Part shown: positions 3,333 through 62,367 of the stretch, one piece after another
Layout: every line of letters starts with the position of its first letter
Numbering within the stretch: position 1 is the stretch's first letter
Notes under the pieces: generated by a model
What the model was told of the DNA's origin: nothing
The model's database searches: none
Seen by the model: the letters and a program-made list of their open reading frames with translations, nothing else
Assembly (NCBI GenBank): GCA_050123235.1
Contig: JASFHL010000005.1
Coordinates: forward strand, 30,695-94,694
DNA length: 64,000 nucleotides
Source of the DNA: Candidatus Woesebacteria bacterium
Lineage (GTDB): Bacteria > Patescibacteriota > Microgenomatia > UBA1400 > PJMF01
Direction of reading: 5' to 3'
Position numbers and translations under genes: made by a program

Positions 3333-5474
3333 TTGTCTATGTCAAATTTTAAATCTGCCAATAAACAAGTTCCACTCGATAGAGTTCGTAATATTGGGAT
3401 CATTGCCCATATTGATGCTGGTAAAACCACCACCACTGAGCGTATCCTTTTTTACACTGGTCGTAATTACAAGATCGGTGAAGTTCACGAAGGTGCAGCT
3501 ACCATGGATTGGATGGAACAAGAACAAGAAAGAGGAATCACTATTGTTTCTGCTGCCACTACTGCTTTTTGGAAACCATATTTTGATAGCCACTTAGCCA
3601 AAGAAGATTATCGTTTCAATATTATTGATACTCCAGGACACGTTGATTTTACCGCTGAGGTAGAGCGTTCACTCAGAGTCTTGGATGGTGGTATTACAGT
3701 ACTGGATGCTTCGGAAGGGGTACAATCTCAAAGCGAAACTGTCTGGCGTCAAGCAGATAAATACAATGTGCCACGGATTTGTTTTGTCAATAAAATGGAT
3801 AAACTGGGTGCTGATTTTATGGACACGGTCAAAGATATTAGAGATAAATTTGGAGTTAAGCCAGCAGTCATGGTTTTACCAATGGGGGCTGAAAACCAGT
3901 TTAAGGGAGTGATTCTTTTACTAGATAGAAAAGCTTTGTTTTGGAAAGACAGTGCTGCTGATACAGAGCCAGAAGTTAAAGAAATTCCAGAGGAATATAA
4001 ACAAGAAGTAGAAAAATTAAGAGCGGAGCTGATGGAAGCTATTGCGGAAACAGATGATGGCTTGATGGAAAAGTTTCTTAATGAAGAAGAAATGGAATTA
4101 AATGAGTTGAAAGCGGCTTTGAGAAAAGCAGTTATCAACTACCAATTAGTGCCTGTTTTTGCTGGTAGTTCTCTTAAGAACACTGGTGTTCAAGTTTTAC
4201 TAGATGCTGTAATTGAGTATTTGCCTTCTCCAATGGATATTGAAGCCATCAAAGGTGAAGATCCAAAAACCAATGAAGAAGTGGAAAGAAAATTAATTCC
4301 AGAAGAAAAACTCTGTGGTTTAGCTTTTAAAATTCAAACAGATCCCCATGTAGGTAAATTGACCTATTTTAGAATTTATTCAGGTGTCTTAAAAGCAGGC
4401 AGCTATATTTACAATAGTGTCCAAGGCAAAAAAGAAAGAGTCGGGCGTTTGTTATTGATGCATGCTAATCAAAGAGAAGAGATTGCTGAAGCCAGAGCAG
4501 GTGAGATTGTAGCCATTATTGGTCTAAAAAACACTAAAACAGGCGATACTTTATGTGATGAACAGCACCAGATTGTACTTGAGGGGATTACTTTTGCAGA
4601 ACCAGTGATTTCTTTGGCTATTGAACCAAAAACCAAATCTGATCAAGAAAAAATGGGTTTAGCTCTAAATAAACTCAGTGAGGAAGATCCAACCTTTTCT
4701 ATTAAAGTTGATCAAGAAACAGGCCAAACAATCATTGGTGGCATGGGTGAGCTACACCTGGAGATTATTGTTGACAGAATGAAGCGAGAATTCAAAGTCG
4801 ATGCCAATGTGGGTAAACCTCAAGTCGCCTATCGAGAAACTATCACTCAAGCTGCTCAAGGTGAAGGTAAATACATCAAACAAAGTGGTGGTCGCGGTCA
4901 GTATGGTCATGTTCTACTTAGACTTGAACCACAAGATCGTGGAACTGGCTATGAGTTTGTTAATGAAATCAAAGGAGCTGCTGTTCCTAGAGAATATATT
5001 GAGCCAACTAATAAAGGTGTTCAAGAATCTCTCGAGCGAGGTTTTTTGGCTGGTTATCCAATGTCAGATCTTAAAGTCACTTTATATGATGGTTCTTTTC
5101 ACGAAGTTGATTCTAGTGAACTAGCTTTTAAAATGGCTGGCTCTTTGGGTATGAAAGATGCAGTTGCTAAAGCTGGCATGGTGTTGTTAGAGCCAATTAT
5201 GAAGGTCGAAGTCACTACTCCTGAAGAATTCATGGGTGATGTGATTGGTGATATTAGTGGTCGTAGGGCTCAAATTCAAGGAACAGTTAATCGAGGCAAT
5301 GTGGTTATTATTACCGCTCTAGTGCCTTTGGCAGAAATGCAAGGTTATGTCACAATTCTGCGAAGCATGACCCAAGGTCGTGCCACTAGTGTGATGTTAC
5401 CAAGTCATTATGATGAAGTGCCAAAACAAATTTCTGATAAGATTGTTGAAGAAAGAAAGGGGTTTAGAAGATAA
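3333..5474 (+). CDS. fusA: elongation factor G
   Basis: 713 aa; G1 motif [21 protein letters not shown]; full EF-G domain order; follows rpsG. Confidence 0.95.
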
Positions 5475-45647: not shown

Positions 45648-45786
45648 TGTCCTCCTTTCTAGATTTCTAAATATTCTATGGTCAGTTATGATTTCTGATA
45701 ATATACATCTTGTTTGTTTAAATTAAGACTTGTCTTTTTCATATATAAAGAGTATATTTCAAAAAATAAAACAATTTGTTTTATTT

Positions 45787-46860
45787 ATGAAAACAAAATT
45801 ACACACTCATGCTTCATTGGTAGCTAAACGGATTAAGAGAGCAAGGATTAAAGCTGGTTTATCTCAACAAGAACTAGGGGAATTAGTTTTTAAAACAGGA
45901 GCTGCGATTGGTTATATTGAAAGAGGTTATCGCGGCGTTAATGTCGAAGATCTAGTTCGATTTTCCAAAGTACTGAATGTCCCCATTGATTATTTTTTTT
46001 CTCAAAAAATCACCAGTGATTTAGTTCTTCAAGAAACTTTAGATAAGTTACAGCAACATATAGCTAAATTGAACACTACCCTTCTAACTGAGAATCAAAT
46101 AATCGAGGAGCTGATCAGAGATTTACCAAGAGCAGAAGAGTTGAGATTAATTACAGAAGCTTCTATTAATCCAATTTTATTAATTTCTCAGACAGGAAAA
46201 ATTCTATATGTTACTCGCTCAATTAAAGATATGATTGGCTTTAGAGCAAAAGATTTACTTGGTAAATCTCATCTTTTAATAGTGCCTAAAGAGAGAAAAC
46301 AGCAGTGCAAACAAAATTTGAATAAATTATTTACAAAACAAAAGCGTTTGCAATATGAAAGCCAATTGCAACATCTTAATACTGCTCTTATTGATGTTGA
46401 GATTAATGCTGGTGTAATTAAAAAAGATGGCAAACTAATGGTTCATGCTATCTTACGTAATATTACTGATAGAAAGAAGATTCAACACCAGTTGGCAGCA
46501 ATGAAAAAACAGTGTGTTTCTATTTTTGATAATATTCCAACCATGATTTTAGCTCTTGATGAAAAAATGAATATTGTGATCTGGAATAAAGAGTGTGAGG
46601 AAATTACTGCTTATTCTAAAGAAGAAATCATTGCTAATGGCAATGCATTCCATTTGATTTTTGCTGATTTAATTTTAGAAAAGAAATCAACAAAGGAGTT
46701 TATTAAAACCATTAAAAACCAAAGTAAAGTTGATAATAGGAAACTAAGAGTTCATTGTAAGAATGGCACAGTTAAGGAAATGACTGTATCAATTGTTGCT
46801 GATCAAGATTTTACTATTGATCATAAAAATTGCTTAGTGTTTGCTTTAAAGGAATCATAG
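45787..46860 (+). CDS. XRE-type HTH + PAS-domain regulator
   Basis: N-terminal HTH (IKRARIKAGLSQQELGELV....AIGYIERG.R...V.DL..FSKVL.VP.DYF), then two PAS-like segments. I prefer the ATG at 45787 over the upstream ORF-track start at 45730. Confidence 0.65.
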   Translation: MKTKLHTHASLVAKRIKRARIKAGLSQQELGELVFKTGAAIGYIERGYRGVNVEDLVRFSKVLNVPIDYFFSQKITSDLVLQETLDKLQQHIAKLNTTLLTENQIIEELIRDLPRAEELRLITEASINPILLISQTGKILYVTRSIKDMIGFRAKDLLGKSHLLIVPKERKQQCKQNLNKLFTKQKRLQYESQLQHLNTALIDVEINAGVIKKDGKLMVHAILRNITDRKKIQHQLAAMKKQCVSIFDNIPTMILALDEKMNIVIWNKECEEITAYSKEEIIANGNAFHLIFADLILEKKSTKEFIKTIKNQSKVDNRKLRVHCKNGTVKEMTVSIVADQDFTIDHKNCLVFALKES

Positions 46861-47310
46861 ATGCTTTTACTTCATAGTTGTTGTGCTGATTGTACTATTA
46901 AGTTTCTTAAATCATTAGAATATGATTCAACCGCTAAAGTAGCTAGAGTTGCTCTATTTTTTTACAATCCAAATATTCATCCTAGATCAGAGTATTTATC
47001 TAGGCTGGCTGCCTTAAAAAATTTTTTTGCTAATCAGAAATTAAAAGTTATTATTTTTAATTGGCGACCAAGTGAGTATTTCAAAAAGATAATAAAGTTG
47101 AAAGATTCTCAAGAAAATAAAAAAATTTTTATTGAGAAAAAAGATCGCTGTCCTCTTTGCTGGCATTTAAGATTAGAAAAAGCTTTCCAATATGCTAAGG
47201 AGCACGATTATCAAGAATTATCTTCAACTTTGCTAAGCAGTTCTTATCAAAATCAAAAAAAGATTTTAGCTATAGCCAAAAAATTGGCAAAAAAATATAA
47301 AGTTAAATAG
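46861..47310 (+). CDS. QueH-like (DUF208, epoxyqueuosine reductase-like) protein, short
   Basis: 149 aa; N-terminal LLLHSCCADC (QueH has LLHxCCAPC) and a later CPLCW..RL Cys motif; shorter than typical QueH. Confidence 0.45.
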   Translation: MLLLHSCCADCTIKFLKSLEYDSTAKVARVALFFYNPNIHPRSEYLSRLAALKNFFANQKLKVIIFNWRPSEYFKKIIKLKDSQENKKIFIEKKDRCPLCWHLRLEKAFQYAKEHDYQELSSTLLSSSYQNQKKILAIAKKLAKKYKVK

Positions 47311-47574: not shown

Positions 47575-48753
47575 ATGAAAAAACAATTTAAAAAAAACAA
47601 ATTGATAATTTTCGATACTACTCTCCGTGATGGAGAACAAGTACCAGGAGCTAAATTAAACACAGAAGAAAAAGTGATTATTGCCAAGCAACTAGAAAAG
47701 CTAGGTGTAGATGTGATAGAAGCTGGTTTTCCTATCTCCAGTCCTGAAGACTTTCGATCAGTTAATGAAGTTGCTAAAAAAATAAAGCATGCTGTAGTTT
47801 GTGGATTAACTAGAGCAGTAAAGAAAGATATTGAAGTGGCAGCAGAGGCCTTGCAGACAGCAAAGTTTCCTAGAATTCATACTGGGATTGGTGCCTCTGA
47901 TGTTCACATTAAACATAAATTCAAATCAACTAGGAAAAGAGTACTTGAGCAAGCTATTAAGGCAGTCAAGTATGCCAAAAAATTTGTTGATGATGTGGAA
48001 TTTTATGCTGAGGATGCTGGTCGAGCTAATGATAAATTCTTGTCTAAGATGGTTGAGGCCGTGATTGCAGCTGGAGCTACTACTGTCAATATTCCTGATA
48101 CTACAGGTTACTGTTTCCCAGAAGAATTTGCTGCAAAAATCAATTATCTTTTTGAGAATGTCAAAGGTATTGATCAGGCTGTGATTAGTGTTCATTGCCA
48201 TAACGATTTAGGTTTAGCCACAGCTAATAGTATTGCTGCTATTCAAGCAGGAGCAAGACAAGTTGAAGTCACCATTAATGGCATTGGTGAACGGGCAGGA
48301 AATACAGCCTTAGAGGAAGTGGTGATGGCAATGGAAACACGGGCCAAACAAAACTTGGATATTGATATTCAAACTAAAGAAATATCTAAGACTTCTAGCT
48401 TGGTTTCAGAAACGATGGGTATTCCAATTCAACCTAATAAAGCAATTGTTGGAGCCAATGCTTTTGCTCATTCTTCTGGAATTCACCAAGATGGTTTGCT
48501 CAAAAAAAGACAAAATTATGAAATCATTAATCCCAAGACAGTTGGGATTAATAGTTCTAAGATTATTCTAACTGCTCGTTCTGGCAGAGCTGCCTTGAGA
48601 TTCAGATTAGCTGAGTTAGGTTTTGCAATGGAAAAAGAAGAGATCAGTAATATTTATGGAGATTTTCTCAAAATAGCTGATAGCAAAAAAGAAGTGACAA
48701 ATAAAGACTTAAAAGAACTTATTAAAACAGTTGGATTGCAAAAGGGAGCTTGA
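47575..48753 (+). CDS. leuA: 2-isopropylmalate synthase / (R)-citramalate synthase family enzyme, catalytic domain only (no C-terminal LeuA allosteric domain)
   Basis: 392 aa; DTTLRDGEQ and HCHNDLGLA(T)AN motifs of the HMGL-like/LeuA family. It ends right after the TIM-barrel and subdomain I, and is followed by leuCDB. Confidence 0.8.
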
Positions 48754-50159
48754 TTATGAAAGCAAAAACAATGTATGAAAAAATCTGGGAAAAGCATATT
48801 GTTTGCCATGATCAAGACGCCGAGCCAGTGATCTATATAGATACTCACCTTGTTCATGAAGTAACTTCACCACAAGCTTTTGATGGACTGCGCCAAAGAG
48901 GTCTGAAGCTAAGAAGACCAGATAGGACTTTTATGACTATAGATCACGTGATTTCCACTAAAGACCCAAAACGTGATTTTTTTAGCAAGAAAACAAAAAA
49001 AATGATGAAAGTTGCAGCTAGTAACGCTCAAGAGTTTTCAGTGAAATTATTTGATACTGATTCTAAAAAACAGGGTGTGATTCATATTATTGCTCCAGAA
49101 TTAGGTCTTATTCAACCAGGTATGACTATTGCTTGTGGTGACAGCCATACTGCTACTCACGGTGCTTTTGGAGCAATTGCGTTTGGTATTGGCACCAGCG
49201 AAGTTGAATGTATTTTAGCCAGTCAATGTTTATTGCAGAAAAAAATGAAAACCATGGAGATCAGAGTTGATGGCAAGCTTGGCAAGGGAGTGACTGCCAA
49301 AGATCTCATTTTAGCTATCATTAATAAACTAGGAGTAGGAGGTGGTACTGCTTATGCAGTCGAATATACAGGCGAAGCTATCAGAGCTATGTCAATGGAT
49401 GAGAGATTAACCATTTGCAACATGTCTATTGAATTTGGGGCTAAAGTAGGCATGATTGCAGCAGATGAAATAACTTTTGCTTACCTCAAAGCTAAGGAAT
49501 ATGCCCCAAAGGGGGAAGATTTTGAAAAAGCAGTTAAAGACTGGAAAAAGTTGAGAACAGATAAAGCTGCCAAATATGACAGGGTAATAAAAATATCTGC
49601 TCAGCAACTAAAACCACGAGTAACTTACGGTATTAGCCCAGATATGAATCTTGCTATTGACGAAAAGCTTCCCACTAAGCAGAGTCTTAGTAATGAGACT
49701 GATCGAGAGATGTTAGAGCAAGCTCTTGATTACATGGACTTTAAAGAAGGTGAAGCAATCCAAGGTAAAGAAATTCAGCATGTTTTCATTGGTAGCTGCA
49801 CCAACGGCAGACTTACTGATTTAGAAGCAGCAGCCAAAGTTCTCAAAGGCAAAAAAGTGGCAAAAGGGGTTACTGCGGTGCTTGTGCCTGGTTCTATGCC
49901 AATTAAAGCAAAGGCAGAAGAAAAAGGTTTGGACAAGATTTTTAAAGATGCTGGCTTTGAATGGCGTCAGCCTGGTTGCAGTAGTTGTTTAGCCATGAAT
50001 GGAGATCTTATCCCGGCTGAAGAATATTGTGTAAGTACAACTAATCGTAATTTTAAAGGACGTCAGGGTAAAGGTGCTAGAACCATTCTAGCTAGTCCTA
50101 TGATGGCGGCAGCGGCTGCTATCACTGGCAAAATTACAGACGTAAAGGAGCTATTATGA
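48750..50159 (+). CDS. leuC: 3-isopropylmalate dehydratase large subunit
   Basis: 469 aa; aconitase-family Fe-S ligand motifs ([17 protein letters not shown]); overlaps the leuA stop. Confidence 0.9.
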
Positions 50160-50743
50160 AAAAATTTACTATCATTAACTCTAGTTGCGTGCCAATCAAT
50201 TGGAAAAATATTGATACAGATCAAATTTTACCTGCCAGGTTTATGACAGGAGTTAAAAAAACTGGTTTTGCTAAGCTACTCTTCTATGATCATCGCTATG
50301 ACAAAGATGGTAAACCTAATAAAAGTTTTGTTTTAAATGATGATAGATATAAAGGACATAAAATTCTGGTAGCTGGTCATAATTTTGGCTGCGGCAGTTC
50401 CAGAGAGCATGCTCCCTGGGCAATTAGTCAATATGGCTTTAGAGTAGTGATTTCTTCAATGTTTTCTAGTATTTTTAAAAATAATGCCCTCAAAAATGCA
50501 CTGTTATTAGTTGAAGTTCCGGAGGCAGAGTTAGAGAGCATTTTTGCTGAGATTGAAAAAAATCCCAAGTTTAAAATCACAGTCAATTTACCAGACCAAA
50601 CCATTAGTTTTGCTAATAAGAAAATTAAATTTAAAATTAGTCCCTTTAGAAAACGATGTATTATCAATGGTTATGATGATGTCAACTATCTCTTTTCCAA
50701 GAAGAAAGAAATTAAGAAATATGAATTAGCAAATAAAAAATAG
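50156..50743 (+). CDS. leuD: 3-isopropylmalate dehydratase small subunit
   Basis: 195 aa; aconitase swivel domain (GHNFGCGSSREHAPWA). Confidence 0.9.
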   Translation: MKKFTIINSSCVPINWKNIDTDQILPARFMTGVKKTGFAKLLFYDHRYDKDGKPNKSFVLNDDRYKGHKILVAGHNFGCGSSREHAPWAISQYGFRVVISSMFSSIFKNNALKNALLLVEVPEAELESIFAEIEKNPKFKITVNLPDQTISFANKKIKFKISPFRKRCIINGYDDVNYLFSKKKEIKKYELANKK

Positions 50744-50756
50744 AAAGGCTTAAAAC

Positions 50757-51827
50757 ATGAAAAAATCTATTCTAGTGCTTGGTGGCGATGGGATTGGTCC
50801 TGATGTTACTAAGCAAGCTGTCAAAGTTTTGAGAAAAGTAGCCAAAAAATTCAAACATCAATTTGAGTTTAAAAAGGCATTAATAGGAGCCGTGGCTATA
50901 GATAAGACAGGCAATCCTTTACCTGAAAAAACTATTAGTTTAGCTAAAAAGTCTGATGCTATTTTGTTTGGGGCAATTGGTTCACCTAAATATGATAATA
51001 ATCCCAATGCCAAAGTTAGACCTGAGCAGGGTTTACTCGGTATTAGAAAAGCGCTAGGCCTTTTTGCCAATCTAAGACCTATCAAATTGTTTGATGAGCT
51101 GCTGGATACTTCACCACTTAAGGCTGAAGTAATCAAAGGTTCTGATATTTTGATTTTCAGAGAATTGATTGCTGGTATCTATTTTGGAGCTCGTGGTAGA
51201 ACTGAGGATCTAAACGAAGCTTTTGACACCATGATTTATTCCAAAGAATCTGTGCGCAGAATAGGGAAATTAGCTTTTGAAACAGCCAGAACTAGAAAAA
51301 AGAAAGTCTGTAGTGTAGATAAAGCTAATGTGCTTGCTAGCTCTAGGCTTTGGAGAGAGGCGATTGTAGAGTTGGCAAAAGAATATCCAGATGTGGAATT
51401 GAGTCACCTCTTTGTAGATAACGCTGCCATGCAATTGATCAAAAGACCAAGTGAATTTGATGTGATTGTGACAGGCAATATGTTTGGCGATATTCTTTCT
51501 GACGAAGCTTCACAGATTGCTGGTAGTTTAGGGATGTTGGCTTCAGCCAGTATGGGTGAAAAATATGGCCTTTATGAACCAATTCACGGAAGTGCTCCCA
51601 AGTATGCTGGTAAAAATGTGGCTAATCCCTTGGCCACTATTTTATCAGCCCAAATGATGTTAAGTTTGGCTTTTAAAATGAAAAAAGAAGCTAAAGCGGT
51701 AGAGAAAGCAATTGGTAAGGTTTTGGCAGCTGGCTATCGTTGCAAAGACATTGCTGATGCTAAAACTGAAAGAAATAAAATAGTGGGGACGGAAGAGATG
51801 GGTGATTTAGTGGCTGCAGCGATTTAG
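50757..51827 (+). CDS. leuB: 3-isopropylmalate dehydrogenase
   Basis: 356 aa; [12 protein letters not shown] signature of isocitrate/isopropylmalate dehydrogenases. Confidence 0.9.
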
Positions 51828-51929: not shown

Positions 51930-53381
51930 TTGGTATATAGATTATTCATGAAAGCTACTCAAAATGTGTTAGATATAATTTTTGTTAATCCTTTCCCAGA
52001 AAATGCTTATGGTATTAATAGTGAAACAGTAGAACCTCCCTTAGGTTTGGGTTACTTGGCCGCAGTTGCTGAAGAGAGAGATTTTTCTTGTGAGATAATT
52101 GACGCTAATATTTTGGAACTCAAGATTGCTCAAGTTCTCCGAATTATCAAGCAAAAAAAACCAAAAATTGTTGGTATTAATGTCAATCTTTATTCTTATA
52201 AAGTTGCCTTAAAATTGGCAGACAAAATAAAAAAAGCTCTTCCAAAAACAACTGTAATTTTAGGTGGTCCTACACCAACCAGTGCTCCTAGGCAAGTAAT
52301 GAAAGCTTGCAAAACTGATGCTGTCTGTATTGGGGAAGGAGAAAATACTTTAACAGAAATTTTAGATAACTATAAACAAGGCAAACATCTTTTTAGAAGT
52401 GTGGCAGGGATGATGTATCGGAGTAGCAGTGGTAAAAGGATTATGAACAACAAGCCTCGAGCGTTTATACGAAATATTGATACTATTCCCTTTCCTGCCT
52501 ATCATCTTTTTCCAGATCTTAATAAATATAAATCTAGGGCTGTTAAAAAGCCATTCGCTCCTCTTTTGACCAGCCGCGGCTGTCCTTTTCAATGTGTGTT
52601 TTGCAGCAAAGATGTATTTAAGTACGCCTGTCGCATGAGGTCCCCAGAAAACGTAATAGATGAAATTGATATGCTAGTCAAGAAATTTGGAGTAAAACAG
52701 CTAGATATCTTAGATGACAACTTTACAATCAACAAAAAAAGGACAGAGCGTATTCTTGATTTGATAATAAAACGAAAATACGATCTACATATTAATTTAC
52801 AGTCTGGAGTAAGAACAGAAGGCATCGACACCAAAATAATCAGAAAAATGAAAAAGGCAAAGATTTTTAAAATCCCCTTTGGCGTAGAATCAGGCGATCC
52901 TCTGATTCTTAAAAGAATCAAAAAACAACTCAATTTAAAAAAAGTTTTGGCTTGCACTAAAATGGCAAAAAAAGCTGGGATGAAGGTTTATGGCTTTTTT
53001 ATGATTGGTTTACCAGGTGATACTGCTGAAAGTATGCAAAAAACCATAGACTTTGCTATAAAAATGAACCCTAATATTGCAAATTTCAGTATCACCATCC
53101 CTTTTCCCGGAACAGAGCTTTATCAGACGGTAAAAAAAGAAGGTAAGTTTCTTGTTGATATGGATAATGGAATCGATGCTGGCTTTTATGCCAATAAGGT
53201 TTTTTATGAGTTAGAAGGTATGGATAAAGATGTGGTGCTTAGTTACTACCAGAAGGCAATGAAAAGCTTTTATTTCAGACCGAAAAAAATATTTGAACTC
53301 ATCATGAGTATGAATTCATGGAGTGAATTTCAGTGGTTTGCCAAAACTTCTTTTTCAGTTTTTAAAAAATTGTTTAGTTGA
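51930..53381 (+). CDS. B12-binding radical SAM domain protein
   Basis: 483 aa; N-terminal cobalamin-binding-like region, then radical-SAM Cx3Cx2C (GCPFQCVFCSK). TTG start at 51930 or in-frame ATG at 51948. Confidence 0.75.
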   Translation: MVYRLFMKATQNVLDIIFVNPFPENAYGINSETVEPPLGLGYLAAVAEERDFSCEIIDANILELKIAQVLRIIKQKKPKIVGINVNLYSYKVALKLADKIKKALPKTTVILGGPTPTSAPRQVMKACKTDAVCIGEGENTLTEILDNYKQGKHLFRSVAGMMYRSSSGKRIMNNKPRAFIRNIDTIPFPAYHLFPDLNKYKSRAVKKPFAPLLTSRGCPFQCVFCSKDVFKYACRMRSPENVIDEIDMLVKKFGVKQLDILDDNFTINKKRTERILDLIIKRKYDLHINLQSGVRTEGIDTKIIRKMKKAKIFKIPFGVESGDPLILKRIKKQLNLKKVLACTKMAKKAGMKVYGFFMIGLPGDTAESMQKTIDFAIKMNPNIANFSITIPFPGTELYQTVKKEGKFLVDMDNGIDAGFYANKVFYELEGMDKDVVLSYYQKAMKSFYFRPKKIFELIMSMNSWSEFQWFAKTSFSVFKKLFS

Positions 53382-53713: not shown

Positions 53714-55438
53714 ATGAAAAAAGAAAGAAAAAAAGCAGCACAAACTGGCAAACATATTCTATGTCAAGCTTTAAAGAAAATAAAAGCAGGCGCTATCTTT
53801 GGCTACACAGGCGGAGCAATCATGCCGCTCTATGATGAATTGGAAAAATTTCCTGAATTAAAGCACGTCATGACTAGACACGAACAAGGTGCAGCTTTTG
53901 CTGCTCAAGGTTATGCTAGGGCTACTGGTGAATTAGCCTTTGTTTTTACTACTTCAGGCCCAGGAGCTACTAATACTATTACCGGTGTAGCTGATGCGAT
54001 GATGGATAGTGTGCCTATTATGGTCATTACTGGACAGGTTGCAACTAGCGTGGTTGGCACTGATGCTTTTCAAGAAAGCGATGTGGTGGGCCTGATGTTA
54101 CCGATTACCAAACATAGCACAGTGGTCACTGATACTGATGATCTGGCTGAGACATTTTTTAAATTAACAAGTATCGCTTTAGAAGGTAGGCCAGGCCCAG
54201 TTCATTTAGATTTACCCAAAGATATTCAGCTTGGTTTTTCTAGTAACACAGATTATCAGCTTAAGCCTTATGATTTCTATTACCCTGCAGCTTCAGTTCC
54301 TAAGAAAAAATATCAACAAGCGGCCGAAATAATCAATCAAGCAAAAAAGCCCGTAGTTTTCTGCGGACATGGAGTTGTGATTTCTAAATCTCATCAAGAA
54401 TTTTTACGCTTCATAGAAAAAGGTAAATTAACTTTTGCTTCTACTAGTCACGGTCTTTCAGCTGTGCCTAGTGATCACCCTTTGCATTTGGGCATGATGG
54501 GCATGCATGGCACAGTAGCAGCCAATAAGGCAATTGAGGAGGCTGATTGTATTGTTGCTTTAGGTATGCGTTTTGATGATAGAGTGACAGGTAAATTGTC
54601 AGAATATGCTCCTGCTGCTAAAATCATTCACATTGACATTGACCAATCAGAAATTGATAAAAACGTAAGCACAGATTTGGCCATTAATTCTGACCTCAAA
54701 CCAGCTTTGCAAGCGATCACCCCAATGATTAAAAAAGTTGCACGCAAAGATTGGTTGAGCAAAATTCAAAAAAATAAAGCTAAATGGGAAAAGTACATCC
54801 AACCTTTGATCAAAAAAGGTATTGGTGATAATGGTGGTCTATTAATGAAGACTATTGTCACTAAATTATCTACTTTGACTAAAGGTAAGGATAACATCGT
54901 ATCTGACGTGGGTATTCATGAGATGATGCTAGCGCGTTTTTATAATTTCCAACGTTTTAATACTTGGTTCCATTCTGGTGGAGCTGGCACCATGGGTTTT
55001 TCTTTACCTACAGCCATTGGAGTCAAAGTAGCTAGACCAAAGGAAAGAGTTTGGGCAGTGATGGGTGATGGTGGTTTTCAGATGAATGTGCAAGAACTAG
55101 GTACTATTCTGGCAGAGCAGCTTGATATCAAAATTGTAATTCTTAACAATAGTACCCTAGGTATGGTGAGGCAATGGCAGACTCTATTTTTTAATAAGGC
55201 TTATGCTCAGACTGATATGATTAATCCTGATTTTATTAAGTTGGCAGATAGTTATAACATTCCTGGAAAAAGAGTCAGTCAAACTAAAGAGATTGGGCCA
55301 GCTATCAAATGGGCGATGAAAACCAAAGGCCCAGTGATTTTAGAATTTGTCTGTGATAAAGATGAAAAAATTTTCCCAATGGTCCCATCAGGAGCTAATT
55401 TTAGAGAAATGATTGAAACCCATCATGATGCTAATTAG
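53714..55438 (+). CDS. ilvB: acetolactate synthase large subunit
   Basis: 574 aa; ThDP-binding motif GDGGFQMN...LNN; FAD-binding middle domain. Confidence 0.9.
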   Translation: MKKERKKAAQTGKHILCQALKKIKAGAIFGYTGGAIMPLYDELEKFPELKHVMTRHEQGAAFAAQGYARATGELAFVFTTSGPGATNTITGVADAMMDSVPIMVITGQVATSVVGTDAFQESDVVGLMLPITKHSTVVTDTDDLAETFFKLTSIALEGRPGPVHLDLPKDIQLGFSSNTDYQLKPYDFYYPAASVPKKKYQQAAEIINQAKKPVVFCGHGVVISKSHQEFLRFIEKGKLTFASTSHGLSAVPSDHPLHLGMMGMHGTVAANKAIEEADCIVALGMRFDDRVTGKLSEYAPAAKIIHIDIDQSEIDKNVSTDLAINSDLKPALQAITPMIKKVARKDWLSKIQKNKAKWEKYIQPLIKKGIGDNGGLLMKTIVTKLSTLTKGKDNIVSDVGIHEMMLARFYNFQRFNTWFHSGGAGTMGFSLPTAIGVKVARPKERVWAVMGDGGFQMNVQELGTILAEQLDIKIVILNNSTLGMVRQWQTLFFNKAYAQTDMINPDFIKLADSYNIPGKRVSQTKEIGPAIKWAMKTKGPVILEFVCDKDEKIFPMVPSGANFREMIETHHDAN

Positions 55439-55505
55439 TTAGAGTTTGCTAATGAATTTTAAAACAGTTAGAAAATTTATTAATAAAAATTAACTTAATA
55501 GAACT

Positions 55506-56012
55506 ATGAAAATGAAAAAAGTCAAAAATTATACCTTAATCGTTTTTGCAGAAAACAAACCTGGTGTCCTGAATAAAGTTACTATGTTGATCAGAAGAAA
55601 AATGTACAACGTAGAGACAATTACTGCCTACAAAACAGAAACGCCAGGAATCTCAAGGATTACCATTAATGTTAATGATCAAGAAAGTTCTAAGGTTGAA
55701 CAGATAGTAAGACAATTGAAAAAGATCGTGGAAGTCACTGAAGTAATCAATGTCACTAATCAAAAACCAGTAGTTAGAGAATTGGTCTTGATCAAAGTTA
55801 AAACCAACAATGGTAGTAGAGCTCAAGTTTCTCAATTGGCAAATATTTTTAGAGGCAATATAGTTGATGTTTCGCAAGATTCAATGGTGGTGGAAATCAC
55901 AGGTAATCCTCAGAAAGTTGAGTCAGCCATTTGTGTTTTTGATGATTATGAAATTTTAGAAATAGCAGGTACAGGCATCACTGCCATGGAAAGGAGCAAC
56001 GGTGAAGAGTAA
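55506..56012 (+). CDS. ilvN: acetolactate synthase small (regulatory) subunit
   Basis: 168 aa; ACT domain ([22 protein letters not shown]...A). Confidence 0.85.
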
Positions 56013-57672
56013 TTTGGTCAAAACAGGGGTTAACTGCGCTCCCCATCGCAGCCTATTTCGTGCCACAGGCGTAGTAAAAGATAAACGTGATTTTAAAAAA
56101 CCCTTTATTGCTGTGGCTAATTCCTTTGTAGAAATTATCCCTGGCCATGTTCATCTACAGGAATTGGGAAAATTAGCTAAGGCTGCTATTAGAAAAGCAG
56201 GAGGCATTCCTTTTGAATTTAATACTATTGGTATTTGTGATGGTATCGCTATGGGTCACAGTGGGATGAAGTATTCATTGCCTTCTCGGGAGCTAATTGC
56301 AGACAGTGTTGAATCAATGCTTAGGGCTCATTGTTTTGATGGGGTGCTGCTTTTAGGAAACTGTGACAAAATTGTGCCAGGCATGTTGATGGCTGCGATG
56401 AGAGTTAACATCCCAGCCATTTATGTTTCTGGCGGGCCAATGAAAGCTGGTTGCGTTAATGGGCGAGCTACTGACTTAATTACTGTTTTTGAGGCAGTGG
56501 GTGAATATGCCAAAGGGAGTATTTCAGAAAAAAAATTAACAGAATATGAAAAAAAATGTTGCCCTGGTTGTGGTTCTTGTGCAGGCATGTTTACTGCTAA
56601 TTCTATGAATTGTATTGCCGAAGCTTTAGGCATAGCATTGCCAGGAAATGGCACTAGGCTAGCTGAATCTAAAGCCAGAAAGGATTTAGTAGCTCAAGCT
56701 GCTGAACGGATTGTTTCCTTGGTTAAGAAAGATTTGAAACCTAGAGATATTGTCACTAAGCAATCAATTGATAATGCCTTTGCTTTGGATATGGCCATGG
56801 GTGGTTCTACGAACACTGTGCTTCATACTTTAGCCATCGCTCACGAAGCTGGAGTGAAATATGATTTAGACAATATTAATAAAATTTCTGCCAAAGTGCC
56901 ATGTGTTTGTAAGGTTTCTCCTTCAAGACCTGATGTGCACATGGAAGATCTTGACAGAGCTGGGGGTATATCCGCTATTTTAAAAACTATTAGTCAGAAA
57001 AAAGGAACTTTATCTTTGAAAGCAAAGACAGTCTCTGGCAAAACTTTAGGCGAAAATATCAAGACTGCCAAGGTTTTAGATGATGATGTGATTAAAAATC
57101 TTGATCAAGCTTTTTCTAATGAAGGTGGTTTGAGCATTCTCTTTGGTAATTTAGCTCCTCAGGGATCGATTGTTAAAAGTGCCGGAGTCAGTGAGCAGAT
57201 GAAGCATTTTACTGGTAAAGCTAGAGTTTTTGAGTCACAAGAAGAAGCCATGGAGGGCATTATGTCGGGTAAAGTTAAGGTAGGTGAGGTAGTGGTGATC
57301 CGTTATGAAGGTCCCAAAGGTGGCCCTGGTATGCAAGAAATGCTCTCTCCTACTGCTGCAATTGTAGGGCGAGGTTTGGGAGAAAAGGTAGCTTTGATCA
57401 CTGATGGCCGTTTTTCTGGTGGCACTCGAGGAGCTTGCGTGGGGCATGTTTCCCCAGAAGCAGCGGAGAAAGGAGCAATTGCCGCAATCAAAAATGGAGA
57501 TGAAATTGAGATAGATATAGAAAAAGGAGTTTTAGAACTAAAAGTATCTGCGGCAGAAATCAAAAAGCGTCTCAAAGCTTTACCCAAGTTCAAAGCTAGG
57601 ATCAATTATGGTTGGCTTAAAAGATACTCACAGCAGGTCAGTAATGCTAGTGAAGGCGCGGTTTTGAAATAA
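56002..57672 (+). CDS. ilvD: dihydroxy-acid dehydratase
   Basis: 556 aa; ILVD/EDD motifs ([24 protein letters not shown]). Confidence 0.92.
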
Positions 57673-57695: not shown

Positions 57696-58877
57696 ATGCG
57701 ATACCAACAACTATTTGCTAGCAGAACTAAGATAATGGGCGCTAGCGCCATCAGGGAAATCCTTAAAGTTGTTTCTCAGCCTGGTATGGTTTCATTGGCA
57801 GGAGGTATTCCTGCCCCAGAAGCCTTTCCTATGAAAATTCTGGATAAACTTTGTTCTAAGGTAATTAAAAAGTATGGTAGCCAGGCTTTTCAATATAGTG
57901 CCACTGAAGGTTTCATGCCTTTGCGTGAAGCTTTAGTCAAGTATTTAAAAAAAGAAAATATTAATACCACTTGTGAGGAAGTACTAATTTCTAGTGGCTC
58001 GCAAGGAATGCTTGACGGCTTAGGTAAAATTTTAATTTCTGAAGGTGATAAAGTAGCAGTTGAGGCACCCACCTATCTGGGAGCCTTACAAGCTTTTAAT
58101 CCATACCAACCACAATATGTCAGTATTGAAACAGATGAGCAAGGTTTCATCCCTAGCTCCTTAGAAAAAGTTTTAAAAAAGCAGAAAATTAAATTTATTT
58201 ATTTGGTACCAACTTTTCAAAACCCTACAGGTAGGACCATTCCTTTAGATAGACGAAAAGCAATTGCCAAGTTAATCATCAAGTATAAAACTTTGTTAGT
58301 AGAAGATGATCCTTATGCTGCCCTTCGTTACCGAGGCAAAAAAGTAGCTAGTATTAAATCATTGGCTCCGGATAATGTAGTTTATTTGGGGACTTTGTCT
58401 AAAGTTTTTGCTCCTGGGTTAAGAATTGGCTTTTCAGTCGCTCCCAAGCAAATCAGCCACTGGCTGACATTAGCTAAGCAAGGAGTAGATTTACATAGCA
58501 GCACTTTTAATCAAGCTCTAGCTGCTGAATATCTAAGTGCTGGCCATTTACAAAAGCAGATTCCAAAGATTCTCAAAGTTTATGAGCCTAGACAAAAAGC
58601 CATGTTAAGAGCTTTAGAAAAATATTTCCCCAAAACCTTCAAGTGGTCAAAGCCAGAAGGAGGGATGTTTATTTGGGTGGCAGGCCCAAAAGGCATGGAT
58701 ATGGAAAAAATTTATTGGCAGGCAGTTAAGAAAAAAGTGGCTTTTGTCCCAGGAAAATTTTTCTATACTGAACCCAAGCAAGGTCTAGAAACAATGCGTC
58801 TCAATTATTCAATGTCTGATGAAAAGACCATTGATCAGGCAATTAAAACTTTGTCGGAAGTAATCAAAAAAAATTAA
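57696..58877 (+). CDS. class-I (fold-type I) PLP-dependent aminotransferase
   Basis: 393 aa; SLSKVFAPGLRIG (SxSKxxxxxGxRxG PLP-lysine motif). It occupies the ilv operon where ilvE would be expected. Confidence 0.8.
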   Translation: MRYQQLFASRTKIMGASAIREILKVVSQPGMVSLAGGIPAPEAFPMKILDKLCSKVIKKYGSQAFQYSATEGFMPLREALVKYLKKENINTTCEEVLISSGSQGMLDGLGKILISEGDKVAVEAPTYLGALQAFNPYQPQYVSIETDEQGFIPSSLEKVLKKQKIKFIYLVPTFQNPTGRTIPLDRRKAIAKLIIKYKTLLVEDDPYAALRYRGKKVASIKSLAPDNVVYLGTLSKVFAPGLRIGFSVAPKQISHWLTLAKQGVDLHSSTFNQALAAEYLSAGHLQKQIPKILKVYEPRQKAMLRALEKYFPKTFKWSKPEGGMFIWVAGPKGMDMEKIYWQAVKKKVAFVPGKFFYTEPKQGLETMRLNYSMSDEKTIDQAIKTLSEVIKKN

Positions 58878-58900
58878 TTATTAGTTTAAAAGGAAAAATT

Positions 58901-59953
58901 ATGGCAAAAATGAAATTTGCAAACACTCAGGAAAATGTAGTTACTAGAAAAGAATTCCCTCTTTCTAAGGCTCAAGAGGTCTTGAAAGACGAAACTGTGG
59001 CAGTGTTAGGTTATGGAGTACAAGGACCAGCCCAAGCTTTAAATATGAAAGACAACGGCATTAAGGTAATTGTTGGTCAAAGAAAAAATTCAGCTTCTTG
59101 GGATAAGGCAGTGGCTGATGGTTGGCAGGAAGGTAAGAATCTGTTTAGTCTTGAAGAAGCTGCCAAGAGAGGCAGCATTGTTCAATATCTACTCTCTGAC
59201 GCAGCTCAAGTTCAGCTGTGGCCAAAAATTAAAAAGCATTTGAGCAAAGGCAAAGCTTTGTATTTTTCTCATGGTTTTGCTTATGTTTATAAAAACCAAA
59301 CCAAAATAGTACCGCCCAAAAATGTTGATGTGATTTTAGTTGCTCCCAAAGGAGCTGGTCGCAGTGTGCGGGAGAATTTTCTCAAAGGATCTGGTATCAA
59401 TGCTAGTTATGCTGTGGCACAAGATTATACAGGCAAAGCAGAGGAACGAACTTTAGCACTAGGAATTGCCATTGGGGCAGGTTACCTTTTTGAAACTAGT
59501 TTCAAAAATGAAGTTTATAGTGACTTAACTGGTGAGAGAGGAGTTTTACTGGGAGCGATTGCTGGTTTAATGGAAGCACAATTTAAAGTATTGCGTAAAC
59601 ATGGACATAGTCCTTCTGAAGCTTTTAACGAAACTGTGGAGGAGTTTACCCAGAGCTTGATTCCTTTGACTGCTCAAAATGGTGCAGATTGGATGATTGC
59701 CAATTGTAGCAGCACCGCTCAAAGAGGGGCTTTAGATTGGATGGACAAATTTAGAGATAATAACATGGCTCTTTTTGAAAAATTATATAAATCTGTGGAA
59801 TCTGGCAAAGAGACTAAGAGAACTTTAGATAAAAACAGCGACCCAAATTATAGAAAGAATTTAGACAAAGAACTTAAACAACTACGTAATCGAGAAATTT
59901 GGCAAACTGGTAAGACAGTTAGAAAGCTTAGACCAGAAAATTGGAAGGAATAA
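58901..59953 (+). CDS. ilvC: ketol-acid reductoisomerase
   Basis: 350 aa; Rossmann GYGVQGPAQALN; conserved KARI C-terminal knotted domain. Confidence 0.92.
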   Translation: MAKMKFANTQENVVTRKEFPLSKAQEVLKDETVAVLGYGVQGPAQALNMKDNGIKVIVGQRKNSASWDKAVADGWQEGKNLFSLEEAAKRGSIVQYLLSDAAQVQLWPKIKKHLSKGKALYFSHGFAYVYKNQTKIVPPKNVDVILVAPKGAGRSVRENFLKGSGINASYAVAQDYTGKAEERTLALGIAIGAGYLFETSFKNEVYSDLTGERGVLLGAIAGLMEAQFKVLRKHGHSPSEAFNETVEEFTQSLIPLTAQNGADWMIANCSSTAQRGALDWMDKFRDNNMALFEKLYKSVESGKETKRTLDKNSDPNYRKNLDKELKQLRNREIWQTGKTVRKLRPENWKE

Positions 59954-59956
59954 AAC

Positions 59957-61777
59957 ATGAAGGATTATCAACTTATCTCTGTTAAAACTAAAAAAGTAGT
60001 CAAAGAAACTGATAGCGTGACTACTGATCCTAAAACCGGTAGCCCGCTGGAAGTAGCTTATGACTATAGCAAAATTAAAAAACTTTTTAATTCTTATATT
60101 TACAAAAATGCTCCAATTAGTGCTAGCAAGTATTTGGATCTTTATCCAATCCATGACTATAACAACATTGTTTCTTTGCAAGAAGGAGCCACTCCTTTGT
60201 ATGAGAGCCAAAAACTACGCCAAGAGTTTGGCTTGAGCAAATTATATTTTAAATATGAAGGAGCTAATCCTACTGGTTCATTTAAAGATCGTGGCAGTAT
60301 GGTAGAAGTTACTAAGGCTATTGAACTTGGAGCTAAGGGCGTAACTCTTGCTTCCACTGGGAATATGGCCGCTTCTGTAGCTGCTTATACTGCTAAGGCA
60401 GGTATTGATTGCTATATTTTTGTGCCAGAAGGCACTCCAGCAGGAAAATTAGCTCAAGCTTTATCTTGTGGTGCCAAAGTGATTCAAGTCCGAGCTGATT
60501 ACAGTACAGCTGCCAAACTAGCTGAAAAGGTCGCCAAAAAATATGGTTTTTACTTAGCAGGAGATTATTGCTTTAGACAAGAAGGTCAGAAATCTATTGC
60601 CTATGAAATCATAGAACAACGTCTATTCAAAGTTCCAGATTATATTTTAGTCCCAGTGGGTGTGGGCACTAATATGGCAGCCATTTGGAAAGGATTTAAA
60701 GAATACTATAAATTAGGCTTGATTGATGAACTTCCCCAGATGATTGCTGTTCAAGCAGAAGGTGCTTCCCCAATTATTAAGTCTTTTAATTTGAATCTTA
60801 GAAAATATGCCGTAGTAGACAAGGTAGAAACAGTTTCATCAGCCATTGCGGTAGGAAATCCATTGGATGCTGTTAAAGTAATGAAGCTACTCAAAGAATC
60901 CAAAGGCTTTGCTGTAGCTGTTAGTGATGAAGATACTTTAGAATACCAACATCAACTAGCCAAACAGGAATCAATTTTTGTAGAACCATCTAGCGCTACT
61001 ACTCTAGCAGCCTTAGCAAAATTAAAAAAACTTAAAAAGCTAAAAAAAGATGCTAGCTATATTTGTGTTCTCACCGGAGCAGGTTTGAAAGACCCAGCTG
61101 CTGCTTTAAAAATTCTAGCAGAACCACCCACCATAGAGCCTGATCTCAAAGAAGTTGATAAGATTTTATCTTCTAATATTTTGGATGTGCGCTCATATGG
61201 TGCTAAAAAAAGAGAAGAGATTGTTTTCAAGAAACTGCCAACTAGCTCTCAACTAAAGAAGTTTACCAAAGAAAAATTTGATCTTTCTTTGAGTAAAGAC
61301 TATTTTGAAGAAGTTTATAGACAGGTAAAAAATTTCTTTAAAAAAGGTAAAAAGATTAATCGCGCTGATCTGCAGTACATTATAGAAAATACCATTCAAA
61401 CTTATATCCCAGATGAAAAGAAAGTGCTTAAAGTTCTTGATTTTGAAATTACCACTAAGTATGCTCAACCACCTTTAGCAAAAATGACTGTAGAGGTAAA
61501 AAAGAAAAAAATACAAACCAAAGCCAAAGGAGTAGGTCCAGTGGATGCTGCTATTAATGCTTTACTTAAAGCCTGTCAAGAAAATGGTAAAAAGAAAGTT
61601 AAACTAACCGATTACAAGGTAGAAATTAACACTACTGGTACTGATGCAGCAGTGGATGTAGAAATGAAATTAGAAGATTCTAACAATCAAGTGGTAGGAC
61701 AGGGCACTTCACCTGATATTATCCAAGCATCGATTGCAGCCTTTGTGAGTGGTTATAATATGCTTTATTTGAAGTAG
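59957..61777 (+). CDS. threonine-synthase-like fold-type-II PLP enzyme fused to a C-terminal LeuA-type allosteric (LeuA_dimer-like) domain
   Basis: 606 aa; PLP-lysine motif ANPTGSFKDRGS (ThrC-type P-[ST]-x-[SA]-F-K-D). The C-terminal ~130 aa (GVGPVDAAINAL...LTDYKVEINTTGTDAAVDVEMKL....QGTSPDIIQASIAAFVSGYNML) match the conserved pattern of the LeuA/CimA C-terminal regulatory domain. Confidence 0.65.
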   Translation: MKDYQLISVKTKKVVKETDSVTTDPKTGSPLEVAYDYSKIKKLFNSYIYKNAPISASKYLDLYPIHDYNNIVSLQEGATPLYESQKLRQEFGLSKLYFKYEGANPTGSFKDRGSMVEVTKAIELGAKGVTLASTGNMAASVAAYTAKAGIDCYIFVPEGTPAGKLAQALSCGAKVIQVRADYSTAAKLAEKVAKKYGFYLAGDYCFRQEGQKSIAYEIIEQRLFKVPDYILVPVGVGTNMAAIWKGFKEYYKLGLIDELPQMIAVQAEGASPIIKSFNLNLRKYAVVDKVETVSSAIAVGNPLDAVKVMKLLKESKGFAVAVSDEDTLEYQHQLAKQESIFVEPSSATTLAALAKLKKLKKLKKDASYICVLTGAGLKDPAAALKILAEPPTIEPDLKEVDKILSSNILDVRSYGAKKREEIVFKKLPTSSQLKKFTKEKFDLSLSKDYFEEVYRQVKNFFKKGKKINRADLQYIIENTIQTYIPDEKKVLKVLDFEITTKYAQPPLAKMTVEVKKKKIQTKAKGVGPVDAAINALLKACQENGKKKVKLTDYKVEINTTGTDAAVDVEMKLEDSNNQVVGQGTSPDIIQASIAAFVSGYNMLYLK

Positions 61778-61815: not shown

Positions 61816-62367
61816 ATGTTTTGCGAACGCTTAGATCAACTTAGTCACATCCCGTTTATTGCTGATGGGGCCAGTTCACCTCTAGTAGTCCTTTTATTAA
61901 AGACAGAGTTTACTAAAGCAGTAGAGCTTGCTCTACAAATTGAAGCAATTATTACTGATATTTTGGAAAATCTAGATTTAGAAGTTTCAGGTTTTAGTGC
62001 TGATACTCCATCTGAAGCAAGAGAATTACTTAGTCTTGAAAAACTTGCTGCTGCGCTAAAAGACGTTACTAAGTGGCAAGACTGTCCCTTTGAAACTGAT
62101 GGTATACGTGGGGAATACTTGGATGGTCAATACTTAGGCTATCTTTATTTGAATTCAGCTAGAGCTTTTTTGACTCTGCGAAACTACCGTAATCATTGGC
62201 AAAGTGATGATAATGAAATCATTATTAGTTATCTTGCTTATTCATTTCCCAATTTTTTAGCTGAAAAAGTAGATCCAGATAGAATGCTGAGAAATTTATA
62301 TATTGAGTTTGCTTATCAAGGAGAAGTTTATACAGCTGTTTGCTATCAAGCAGGACTTAATTTTTAA
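61816..62367 (+). CDS. hypothetical protein (183 aa)
   Basis: Intact ORF; no motif recognised. Confidence 0.35.
   Translation: MFCERLDQLSHIPFIADGASSPLVVLLLKTEFTKAVELALQIEAIITDILENLDLEVSGFSADTPSEARELLSLEKLAAALKDVTKWQDCPFETDGIRGEYLDGQYLGYLYLNSARAFLTLRNYRNHWQSDDNEIIISYLAYSFPNFLAEKVDPDRMLRNLYIEFAYQGEVYTAVCYQAGLNF

Follow-up and report, generated by a model that had tools for sequence, protein, structure and literature searches.

A threonine synthase-like PLP enzyme fused to a LeuA-type allosteric module in Patescibacteria and NC10: a putative feedback-controlled threonine dehydratase

The last biosynthetic gene of a leu-ilv cluster in a 64,000-nucleotide stretch of Candidatus Woesebacteria DNA (contig JASFHL010000005.1; hereafter the window, meaning the whole stretch that was analysed) encodes a fusion of a threonine synthase (ThrC)-like pyridoxal phosphate (PLP) enzyme with the allosteric module of 2-isopropylmalate synthase (LeuA). 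Our analyses suggest that this protein, encoded at 59957-61777 on the + strand, is probably a ThrC-derived analogue of the threonine dehydratase IlvA, which would make 2-oxobutanoate under feedback control by a branched-chain amino acid (BCAA). Architecture, folds, residue changes, pocket conservation and gene linkage are what our analyses show; substrate, product, identity of the effector and direction of its effect are inferred, and the substrate would be threonine, and probably serine too. An earlier note on this DNA had put forward a ThrC-like threonine-deaminase analogue feeding 2-oxobutanoate under BCAA feedback, and this appears to be the best supported reading because of the changes in the active site and the gene context. 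The parts of the gene on which the argument turns are the following.

59957-61777, + strand: fusion gene, 606 amino acids (aa), ThrC-like PLP domain and LeuA-type allosteric module (open reading frame, Pfam, NCBIfam)
59957-60127, + strand: N-terminal extension of about 57 aa, degenerate and zinc-ribbon-like (family comparison)
60170-61078, + strand: PALP fold-type II PLP catalytic domain, residues 72-374 (Pfam, structure match)
60284-60286, + strand: K110, predicted PLP Schiff-base lysine, aligned with Lys61 of Thermus thermophilus ThrC
60365-60367, + strand: M137 in STGNMAAS, in place of Thr (T88 in T. thermophilus numbering; alignment)
60560-60568, + strand: G202-D203-Y204, the 'GDY' signature, in place of Asn-Ser (N154/S155; alignment)
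60575-60577, + strand: R207, equivalent to T. thermophilus R160 and kept in all family members (alignment)
61139-61354, + strand: helical linker, residues ~395-466, a homologue of the linker subdomain found ahead of the regulatory domain in LeuA
61355-61765, + strand: LeuA_dimer (PF08502) allosteric domain, residues 467-603 (Pfam, structure match)

The open reading frame (ORF) of 606 codons translates free of stops, and its ATG, preceded by a GGAAGGA ribosome-binding site, lies 4 nucleotides (nt) past the ilvC stop. Profile searches found both parts, with PF00291 PALP at residues 72-374 (E 2.8e-77) and PF08502 LeuA_dimer at residues 467-603 (E 8.4e-30), the latter at 103.8 bits against a gathering threshold of 24.9 and over model positions 2-130 of 131, while among the NCBIfam models those for ThrC rank first; the pairing that the earlier note had read from conserved motifs is thereby borne out. 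The AlphaFold2 model of the full-length protein has a pLDDT of 87.9. We considered whether the fusion could be an assembly or frameshift artefact and excluded it, since independent assemblies from NCBI ('Candidatus Woesebacteria'), JGI and Logan all contain the identical 606-aa protein and many metagenome contigs, independent of each other, carry the fusion as well. As for the N-terminal extension, four zinc-ribbon cysteines (CxxC...CxxC) are present in 109 of 115 family members; in the window protein, as in five close relatives, their places are taken by S8, T11, D24 and T27.

The C-terminal part had been described beforehand as a LeuA_dimer-type domain of about 130 aa. Its nature holds, but its size does not: the LeuA-derived module comprises about 210 aa. 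Residues ~407-604 align with positions 314-502 of the 516-position bacterial LeuA model, and the module therefore includes the helical linker subdomain besides the regulatory domain. When the C-terminal part was modelled alone (AlphaFold2, pLDDT 87.6), the only significant Foldseek matches in the PDB were LeuA of Mycobacterium tuberculosis (E 4e-9) and the regulatory domain of the Leptospira citramalate synthase LiCMS (TM-score 0.84, root-mean-square deviation 2.4 Å, 29-30% identity); the former match spans ~175-179 columns and therefore covers the linker subdomain as well. No ACT-like regulatory domain was detected by Pfam in the C-terminus, where LeuA_dimer stands instead. We take the isoleucine pocket of LiCMS to consist of Y430, D431, L451, Y454, I458, T464 and V468, positions and residue types that fit the 3F6G sequence. 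The aligned residues of the fusion are V529, D530, L550, Y553, I557, T562 and V566, six of the seven being identical, and all seven positions are nearly invariant in 115 family members, so that the module looks like a working amino-acid sensor. Judged by sequence and predicted structure, it is a LeuA/CimA-type allosteric domain.

The N-terminal half tells a more intricate story. The earlier note had assigned it to fold-type II PLP enzymes on the strength of a ThrC-type motif, and NPTGSFKDRG indeed stands at residues 104-113. The closest solved structures are bacterial class I (short-type) threonine synthases (2ZSJ, 1UIM/1UIN/3AEY/1V7C, 2D1F and 6CGQ/6NMX; target-normalised TM-score 0.84-0.86 with Foldseek), dehydratases and racemases scoring lower, and identity to the solved ThrCs is ~50% over the HMMER-aligned catalytic region or 36-41% in the structure-based Foldseek alignment. 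The active site was compared residue by residue between 118 fusions and 78 canonical ThrCs, namely 76 genomic ones and those of Aquifex and Thermus. Relative to T. thermophilus ThrC, K61 and R160 are matched by K110 and R207, whereas T88 is changed to M137, N154 to G202, S155 to D203 and N188 to V236. T88 is found in 75 of the 78 canonical enzymes and is methionine in 118 of 118 fusions; N154 and S155 are present in 78 of 78 and are replaced by glycine and aspartate, respectively, in all 118; and the glycine loop GNAGN of canonical ThrCs has become GxGTN. Five solved ThrCs, including the Arabidopsis enzyme with its ~26% identity, keep STG(N/D)T, NSxNxxRxEGQKT and GN(A/L)GN. T88, N154, S155, R160 and N188 presumably form the site for the phosphate of O-phosphohomoserine, and the aspartate at the S155 position speaks against a phosphorylated substrate. 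Structure work on the Thermus enzyme reportedly indicates that the substrate phosphate also steers the reaction to threonine.

The protein stays below the cut-offs of all five of the closer, specific ThrC models (PRK08197, 291.5 vs 303; PRK05638, 251 vs 421; PRK06381, 210 vs 266; PRK06450, 196 vs 301; PRK08329, 194 vs 358), and it does not belong to IlvA by score either (TIGR01127, 110.8 vs 378.75; TIGR01124, 75.5 vs 411.3). All members of the clade defined by the GDY signature exceed the cut-off of the general model TIGR00260 and fall below those of the specific PRK models, which explains the name 'threonine synthase' in databases. The catalytic domain belongs to a distinct, GDY-type clade devoid of residues that define true threonine synthases.

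Homologues share the fusion, a point raised by the earlier note: all 120 best matches in a 5.8-billion-protein collection carry PALP and LeuA_dimer, with lengths of ~590-640 aa except for one protein of 461 aa, which also has both. Among these matches the carriers, where named, are Woese-, Dojka-, Peregrini- and other Patescibacteria together with NC10/Methylomirabilales, and the public records all bear the name 'threonine synthase'. A scan of metagenomes with family-specific motifs returned at least 567 relatives of the query, of which 80 loci with a near end-to-end match over both domains were kept; a later gene census found an intact fused ORF in 69 of these 80. At 50% clustering the fusions amount to about 16 representatives. 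The fusion is a widespread family in Patescibacteria, or candidate phyla radiation (CPR), and NC10, and it is old, not a local event. The signature E117 / STGNM / GDY / (F/Y)R / xGT(N/L) is shared by many unfused proteins, 350-437 aa in length and encoded on long contigs, which makes the fusion one part of a broader GDY-type clade, whose fused and unfused forms interleave in a neighbour-joining tree. The unfused forms come from some Deltaproteobacteria-like and DPANN-like genomes, and also from CPR. A separate group of ThrC-like proteins of ~440-512 aa, with a C-terminal extension, has I, L, M, N or R at the position of the PLP Schiff-base lysine (P0172, P0196, P0200, P0202, P0203, P0217, P0227, P0228, P0250, P0255, P0262, P0270, P0271, P0282 and P0287); these may be non-catalytic ThrC homologues.

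Gene neighbourhoods were counted over 79 loci with an intact fusion ORF, whose ORFs were labelled by similarity to the window proteins, RidA and IlvE. The control consisted of 76 canonical ThrC loci taken from a contig scan with single-protein patterns, the same scan that found four fusions (L008-L011). A BCAA gene of any kind is present in 45 of the 79 fusion neighbourhoods, and the counts are as follows.

Fusion loci (n=79): ilvE 32 (28 at +1 or +2)
Fusion loci (n=79): RidA 25 (22 directly adjacent)
Fusion loci (n=79): ilvB 22, ilvC 18, ilvD 17
Fusion loci (n=79): leuB 15, ilvN 13
Canonical ThrC loci (n=76): hom 63, thrB 37, RidA 0

Neither hom nor thrB occurs in the fusion loci (0 and 0), and the window and the fusion loci contain no IlvA-like or other PALP gene, one TrpB excepted. 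The adjacent RidA genes are always co-directional with the fusion, about half of them overlapping it or sitting at most 1 nt away, and the catalytic Arg motif is kept in 26 of 26 neighbouring RidAs. A recurrent order, of the Gottesmanbacteria type, is ilvD-ilvB-ilvN-ilvC-fusion-ridA-ilvE. RidA also directly follows three of the six unfused GDY-type genes examined (P0155, P0158 and P0141). It is worth recalling that RidA genes cluster with threonine dehydratase genes (PMC4433059). A single operon of another locus (L171, 431-10939) is particularly instructive, as it runs ilvB-ilvN-ilvC-(unfused GDY-type PALP)-ilvD-thrA-(homoserine kinase)-thrC, in which thrC is a canonical long-type threonine synthase and the kinase a weak match to the Desulfovibrio-type homoserine kinase. 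Since this operon holds a canonical thrC, the GDY-type gene is not the threonine synthase of that organism and occupies the slot of IlvA. The operon also joins the threonine and isoleucine pathways in one transcription unit.

Three side observations concern these neighbourhoods. Many fusion-adjacent CPR RidAs end in short Cys/Gly-rich C-terminal tails (...CCGGGCGGDCEDC, ...EGCCGGCC) that are atypical for RidA (L008-L010, L118, L121, L123, L130, L133, L134, L136 and L144). Directly before an unfused GDY-type PALP gene and RidA, at L172 1526-4375 and at the P0158 locus, lies a divergent HMGL-like synthase of 406-410 aa, which scores ~200 bits with 2-isopropylmalate, homocitrate and citramalate synthase models, below all cut-offs. 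Lastly, locus L008 (CAYIFB010000004.1), with ilvB-ilvN-fusion-ridA-ilvE followed by leuB-leuD-leuC-leuA on the opposite strand, is labelled 'uncultured Gammaproteobacteria', while in gene order and sequence identities it agrees with the Gottesmanbacteria loci; an error of binning or taxonomy may lie behind this label.

It is tempting to outline how such an enzyme might work. The PLP domain would bind L-threonine at K110 and eliminate water, yielding 2-aminocrotonate/2-iminobutanoate, which would hydrolyse to 2-oxobutanoate and ammonia either spontaneously or through RidA where it is encoded. The 2-oxobutanoate would then enter the IlvBN-IlvC-IlvD-aminotransferase route encoded just upstream and end up as isoleucine. 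The linker subdomain and the LeuA_dimer domain would dimerise and bind a branched-chain amino acid, isoleucine being the logical effector and leucine also possible, and this binding would feed back on catalysis, standing in for the ACT-like domains of IlvA. The regulatory LeuA domain of CimA senses isoleucine (PMC13381585). Threonine-deaminase side activity has been described for the canonical ThrCs of Bacillus subtilis, T. thermophilus and Microcystis, and ilvA revertants of B. subtilis used the side activity of ThrC for isoleucine synthesis (PMC12172450; bioRxiv 10.64898/2026.09.15.751699).

Several points weigh against this proposal of a BCAA-controlled threonine dehydratase. The C-terminal part scores higher with the LeuA profile (92 bits) than with that of CimA (48 bits), and the effector could be leucine. 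The TIGR00260 thrC score of the fusion, 246.1, is above the cut-off of 167.1. The phosphate-site role of T88, N154, S155, R160 and N188 is presumed from background on the T. thermophilus ThrC structures, with strict conservation as its backing here, and R207, the equivalent of R160, is kept, so some anionic group may still bind. No nearby BCAA gene is found in 34 of the 79 fusion neighbourhoods, NC10-type loci among housekeeping genes included; RidA is absent from the whole 64-kb window; and in the closest relative (L005/L088, 73% identity) the fusion persists without the surrounding leu-ilv cluster, of which L005 retains a 62-aa leuA fragment at 4011-4196. The control ThrC loci are mostly from Bacillota and Chloroflexota and the fusion loci from CPR and NC10, and taxonomy is therefore confounded with enzyme type. 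The searches for IlvA, CimA and ThrC were confined to the window and the fusion loci.

Two alternatives deserve attention, both of them unlikely and to a similar degree. In the first, the protein would be a gamma-eliminating lyase that forms 2-oxobutanoate directly from homoserine, O-acyl-homoserine or O-phosphohomoserine, bypassing free threonine, again with BCAA feedback. In its favour, gamma-elimination is the native first half of ThrC chemistry and canonical ThrC reportedly releases 2-oxobutanoate as a side product; the retention of R207 in all members fits, and neither product nor operon logic would differ from those of a dehydratase. Yet a phosphate ester should be a poor fit for a site with the S155-to-D and N154-to-G replacements, the fusion loci are all devoid of hom, thrB and homoserine acyltransferase genes, and the L171 operon has the full thrA-kinase-thrC route beside its GDY-type gene, which fits threonine as the substrate. 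The second alternative, a serine/threonine dehydratase of general function, or else a beta-eliminase or beta-replacement enzyme of another kind, whose main role is not isoleucine synthesis (serine to pyruvate, for instance, or a catabolic function), would leave the LeuA-type domain mainly to dimerisation or to some other ligand. Its arguments are the 34 loci without nearby BCAA genes, the retention of the gene without the cluster in L005/L088, the unfused relatives in organisms possibly unable to make BCAAs (DPANN-like archaea and CPR), and the classical substrate of RidA, namely serine-derived 2-aminoacrylate. These are countered by the strongest and most frequent linkage of the family, which is to ilvE, ilvBN, ilvC and ilvD inside operons, and by the nearly invariant effector pocket of a BCAA-binding domain.

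That the protein is a genuine threonine synthase, as annotated, rendered sensitive to BCAA by the added domain, appears less probable still, indeed very improbable. Every public record says so, the fold matches at 0.84-0.86, the TIGR00260 cut-off is passed, and identity to solved ThrCs reaches the values given above with HMMER and Foldseek. However, none of the 118 members retains T88, N154 or S155, and aspartate stands in the place of the last; the closest specific ThrC models, PRK08197 first among them, give scores under their cut-offs; the gene is never beside hom or thrB, while canonical loci have hom in 63 of 76 and thrB in 37 of 76; it is linked to RidA, which occurs in none of the 76 canonical loci; and one operon (L171) encodes this catalytic type together with a canonical thrC.

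The cluster of the window is ordered as follows: HTH-PAS protein, QueH-like ORF, short leuA, leuC, leuD, leuB, B12-radical SAM gene, ilvB, ilvN, ilvD, aminotransferase, ilvC and the fusion.

47575-48753, + strand: short 2-isopropylmalate synthase, 392 aa, HMGL-like and HCS_D2 domains, no regulatory domain (Pfam)
48750-51827, + strand: leuC (48750-50159), leuD (50156-50743) and leuB (50757-51827)
53714-57672, + strand: ilvB (53714-55438), ilvN (55506-56012) and ilvD (56002-57672)
57696-59953, + strand: class I/II aminotransferase (57696-58877) and ilvC (58901-59953)

As the earlier note had observed, the only LeuA-type synthase of the cluster (392 aa) is without LeuA_dimer, its Pfam domains being HMGL-like and HCS_D2 only (PF00682 and PF22617). 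It scores 610.5 bits with the 2-isopropylmalate synthase model NF002086 (cut-off 532) and matches positions 3-383 of the 516-position LeuA model, and because it ends at about model position 383 and overlaps leuC by 4 nt there is no room for a regulatory domain. A role as CimA was considered and rejected, given 610 bits with the 2-isopropylmalate synthase model against 156-202 with CimA models. The 64-kb window contains no second LeuA/CimA and no hidden second PALP, IlvA, ThrC, hom or thrB gene, and Rfam detected no leader or riboswitch in the cluster.

It had further been suggested that the effector module moved from this LeuA to another enzyme, and here the evidence goes the other way. Short LeuAs (381-395 aa, without PF08502) make up the majority of the 120 closest homologues, which include cultured Flavobacteriaceae such as Flagellimonas and Chryseobacterium, so a LeuA of this length is ordinary. 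Full-length LeuAs with a regulatory domain stand beside the fusion in the Gottesmanbacteria loci L009-L011 and also in L094, L121 and L158, and the fusion adjoins short LeuAs (in the window, L008 and others) and full-length ones about equally often. Short LeuA and fusion are therefore independent features. These observations, together with the ~23-25% identity between the C-terminal part of the fusion and the C-terminus of the LeuA of the same locus, argue that the regulatory module was not moved within the cluster. We give hardly any credence to the idea that the module serves the short LeuA in trans as the regulatory subunit that it lacks, one protein thus governing two branch points: the two share a cluster in the window and L008, and the regulatory domain of LeuA is generally known from its structures to contact the partner subunit, but the fusion goes with full-length LeuAs about as often, Flavobacteriaceae and other taxa in which no fusion was seen commonly have short LeuAs, and unfused GDY-type enzymes take the same operon slot.

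Some other genes of the window may be described here. The cluster aminotransferase (57696-58877, + strand; PF00155) has its best NCBIfam matches among the aminotransferase domains of MocR-like regulators, and most related loci have a class IV IlvE in its place. The B12-binding radical SAM gene between leuB and ilvB (51930-53381, + strand; PF02310 and PF04055) matches HpnJ/BchE-like models best in NCBIfam, below cut-offs, and its 85%-identical counterpart in L005/L088 (L005, 8152-9579) is located immediately upstream of the fusion; a functional tie of this gene to the fusion family was considered and rejected, as it is seen only in the window and in the closest relative. Directly upstream of leuA (45730-47310, + strand) are a possible regulator of 376 aa with HTH_3 and PAS domains and a truncated QueH-like ORF of 149 aa matching QueH model positions 1-137 of 175. 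The ORF of 183 aa located 39 nt downstream of the fusion (61816-62367, + strand) matches nothing in Pfam or NCBIfam, and related loci do not have it conserved after the fusion. Farther upstream, a bacterial alpha-2-macroglobulin of 1715 aa (39523-44670, + strand; MG2, bait region, A2M, TED and bMG10 domains) contains a Hint/intein-like segment (PT-HINT, Vint, Hom_end_hint) at residues ~823-952, between the bait region and A2M.

How does the fusion compare with known systems? Like IlvA (EC 4.3.1.19; Escherichia coli, PDB 1TDJ), it is a fold-type II PLP enzyme predicted to convert threonine to 2-oxobutanoate, has a position in the ilv operon with linkage to RidA and IlvE, and places a C-terminal amino-acid-sensing domain after the catalytic domain; unlike IlvA, its catalytic domain derives from ThrC by sequence, and it bears LeuA_dimer with the LeuA linker where IlvA has ACT-like Thr_dehydrat_C domains. 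With class I ThrCs (Aquifex 2ZSJ, T. thermophilus 1UIM/1V7C, M. tuberculosis 2D1F, B. subtilis 6CGQ) it has in common the fold, the PLP-lysine motif, R160 and the EGQK motif, and these enzymes already have weak threonine-dehydratase activity. It departs from them by the T88-to-M, N154-to-G and S155-to-D changes and the altered glycine loop in every member, by a mostly present N-terminal zinc ribbon and a C-terminal module of ~210 aa, and by an ilv/leu and RidA context instead of hom-thrC-thrB. The regulatory domain of LeuA and CimA (M. tuberculosis LeuA 1SR9/3FIG with leucine; LiCMS 3F6G/3F6H with isoleucine) shares PF08502, the fold, the linker and six of the seven residues taken as the LiCMS isoleucine pocket, but in the fusion, at ~23-30% identity, it sits on a PLP enzyme and not on an HMGL-like TIM barrel. 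The threonine synthase of Arabidopsis (1E5X/2C2B, activated by S-adenosylmethionine) likewise puts a ThrC fold under the allosteric control of an end-product-related metabolite; the plant enzyme, however, retains the canonical ThrC residues and uses an N-terminal extension and an S-adenosylmethionine site at the dimer interface instead of a LeuA-type domain. Finally, the 'moonlighting' ThrC of Microcystis aeruginosa is a ThrC-family enzyme reported to make 2-oxobutanoate from threonine with sigmoidal kinetics, but it is still a working threonine synthase and is without a LeuA-type domain (PMC12172450).

Our search of the full-text literature returned no paper on a PALP and LeuA_dimer fusion or on a ThrC-like threonine dehydratase of the GDY type. 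Each part is already known, as is the idea of allosteric control over a first enzyme; what is probably new is the combination, a ThrC scaffold presumably turned dehydratase and a LeuA-type sensor placed on a PLP enzyme. A broader proposal seems to us about evenly balanced: the GDY-type proteins would be an unrecognised class of threonine dehydratases that arose from ThrC by dismantling of the phosphate site, fused in CPR and NC10 and unfused in some Deltaproteobacteria-like and DPANN-like genomes, and in the fused form a LeuA/CimA-type sensor, in place of ACT, would have reinvented the feedback on the step that opens isoleucine synthesis.

If the dehydratase reading is true, the fusion would be a non-orthologous replacement for IlvA in isoleucine synthesis and a documented case of a promiscuous side activity of ThrC turned into a dedicated enzyme. 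One and the same LeuA-type sensor and linker would then control two unrelated folds, a TIM-barrel Claisen condensase and a PLP enzyme, a modular allostery that would be useful for understanding and engineering feedback control and biosensors. As the family goes by the name 'threonine synthase' across CPR, NC10 and DPANN genomes, many such annotations in candidate phyla would be wrong and metabolic reconstructions would mis-assign threonine and isoleucine synthesis, so that reconstructions of auxotrophy may over-credit these organisms with threonine synthesis and miss their route to isoleucine.

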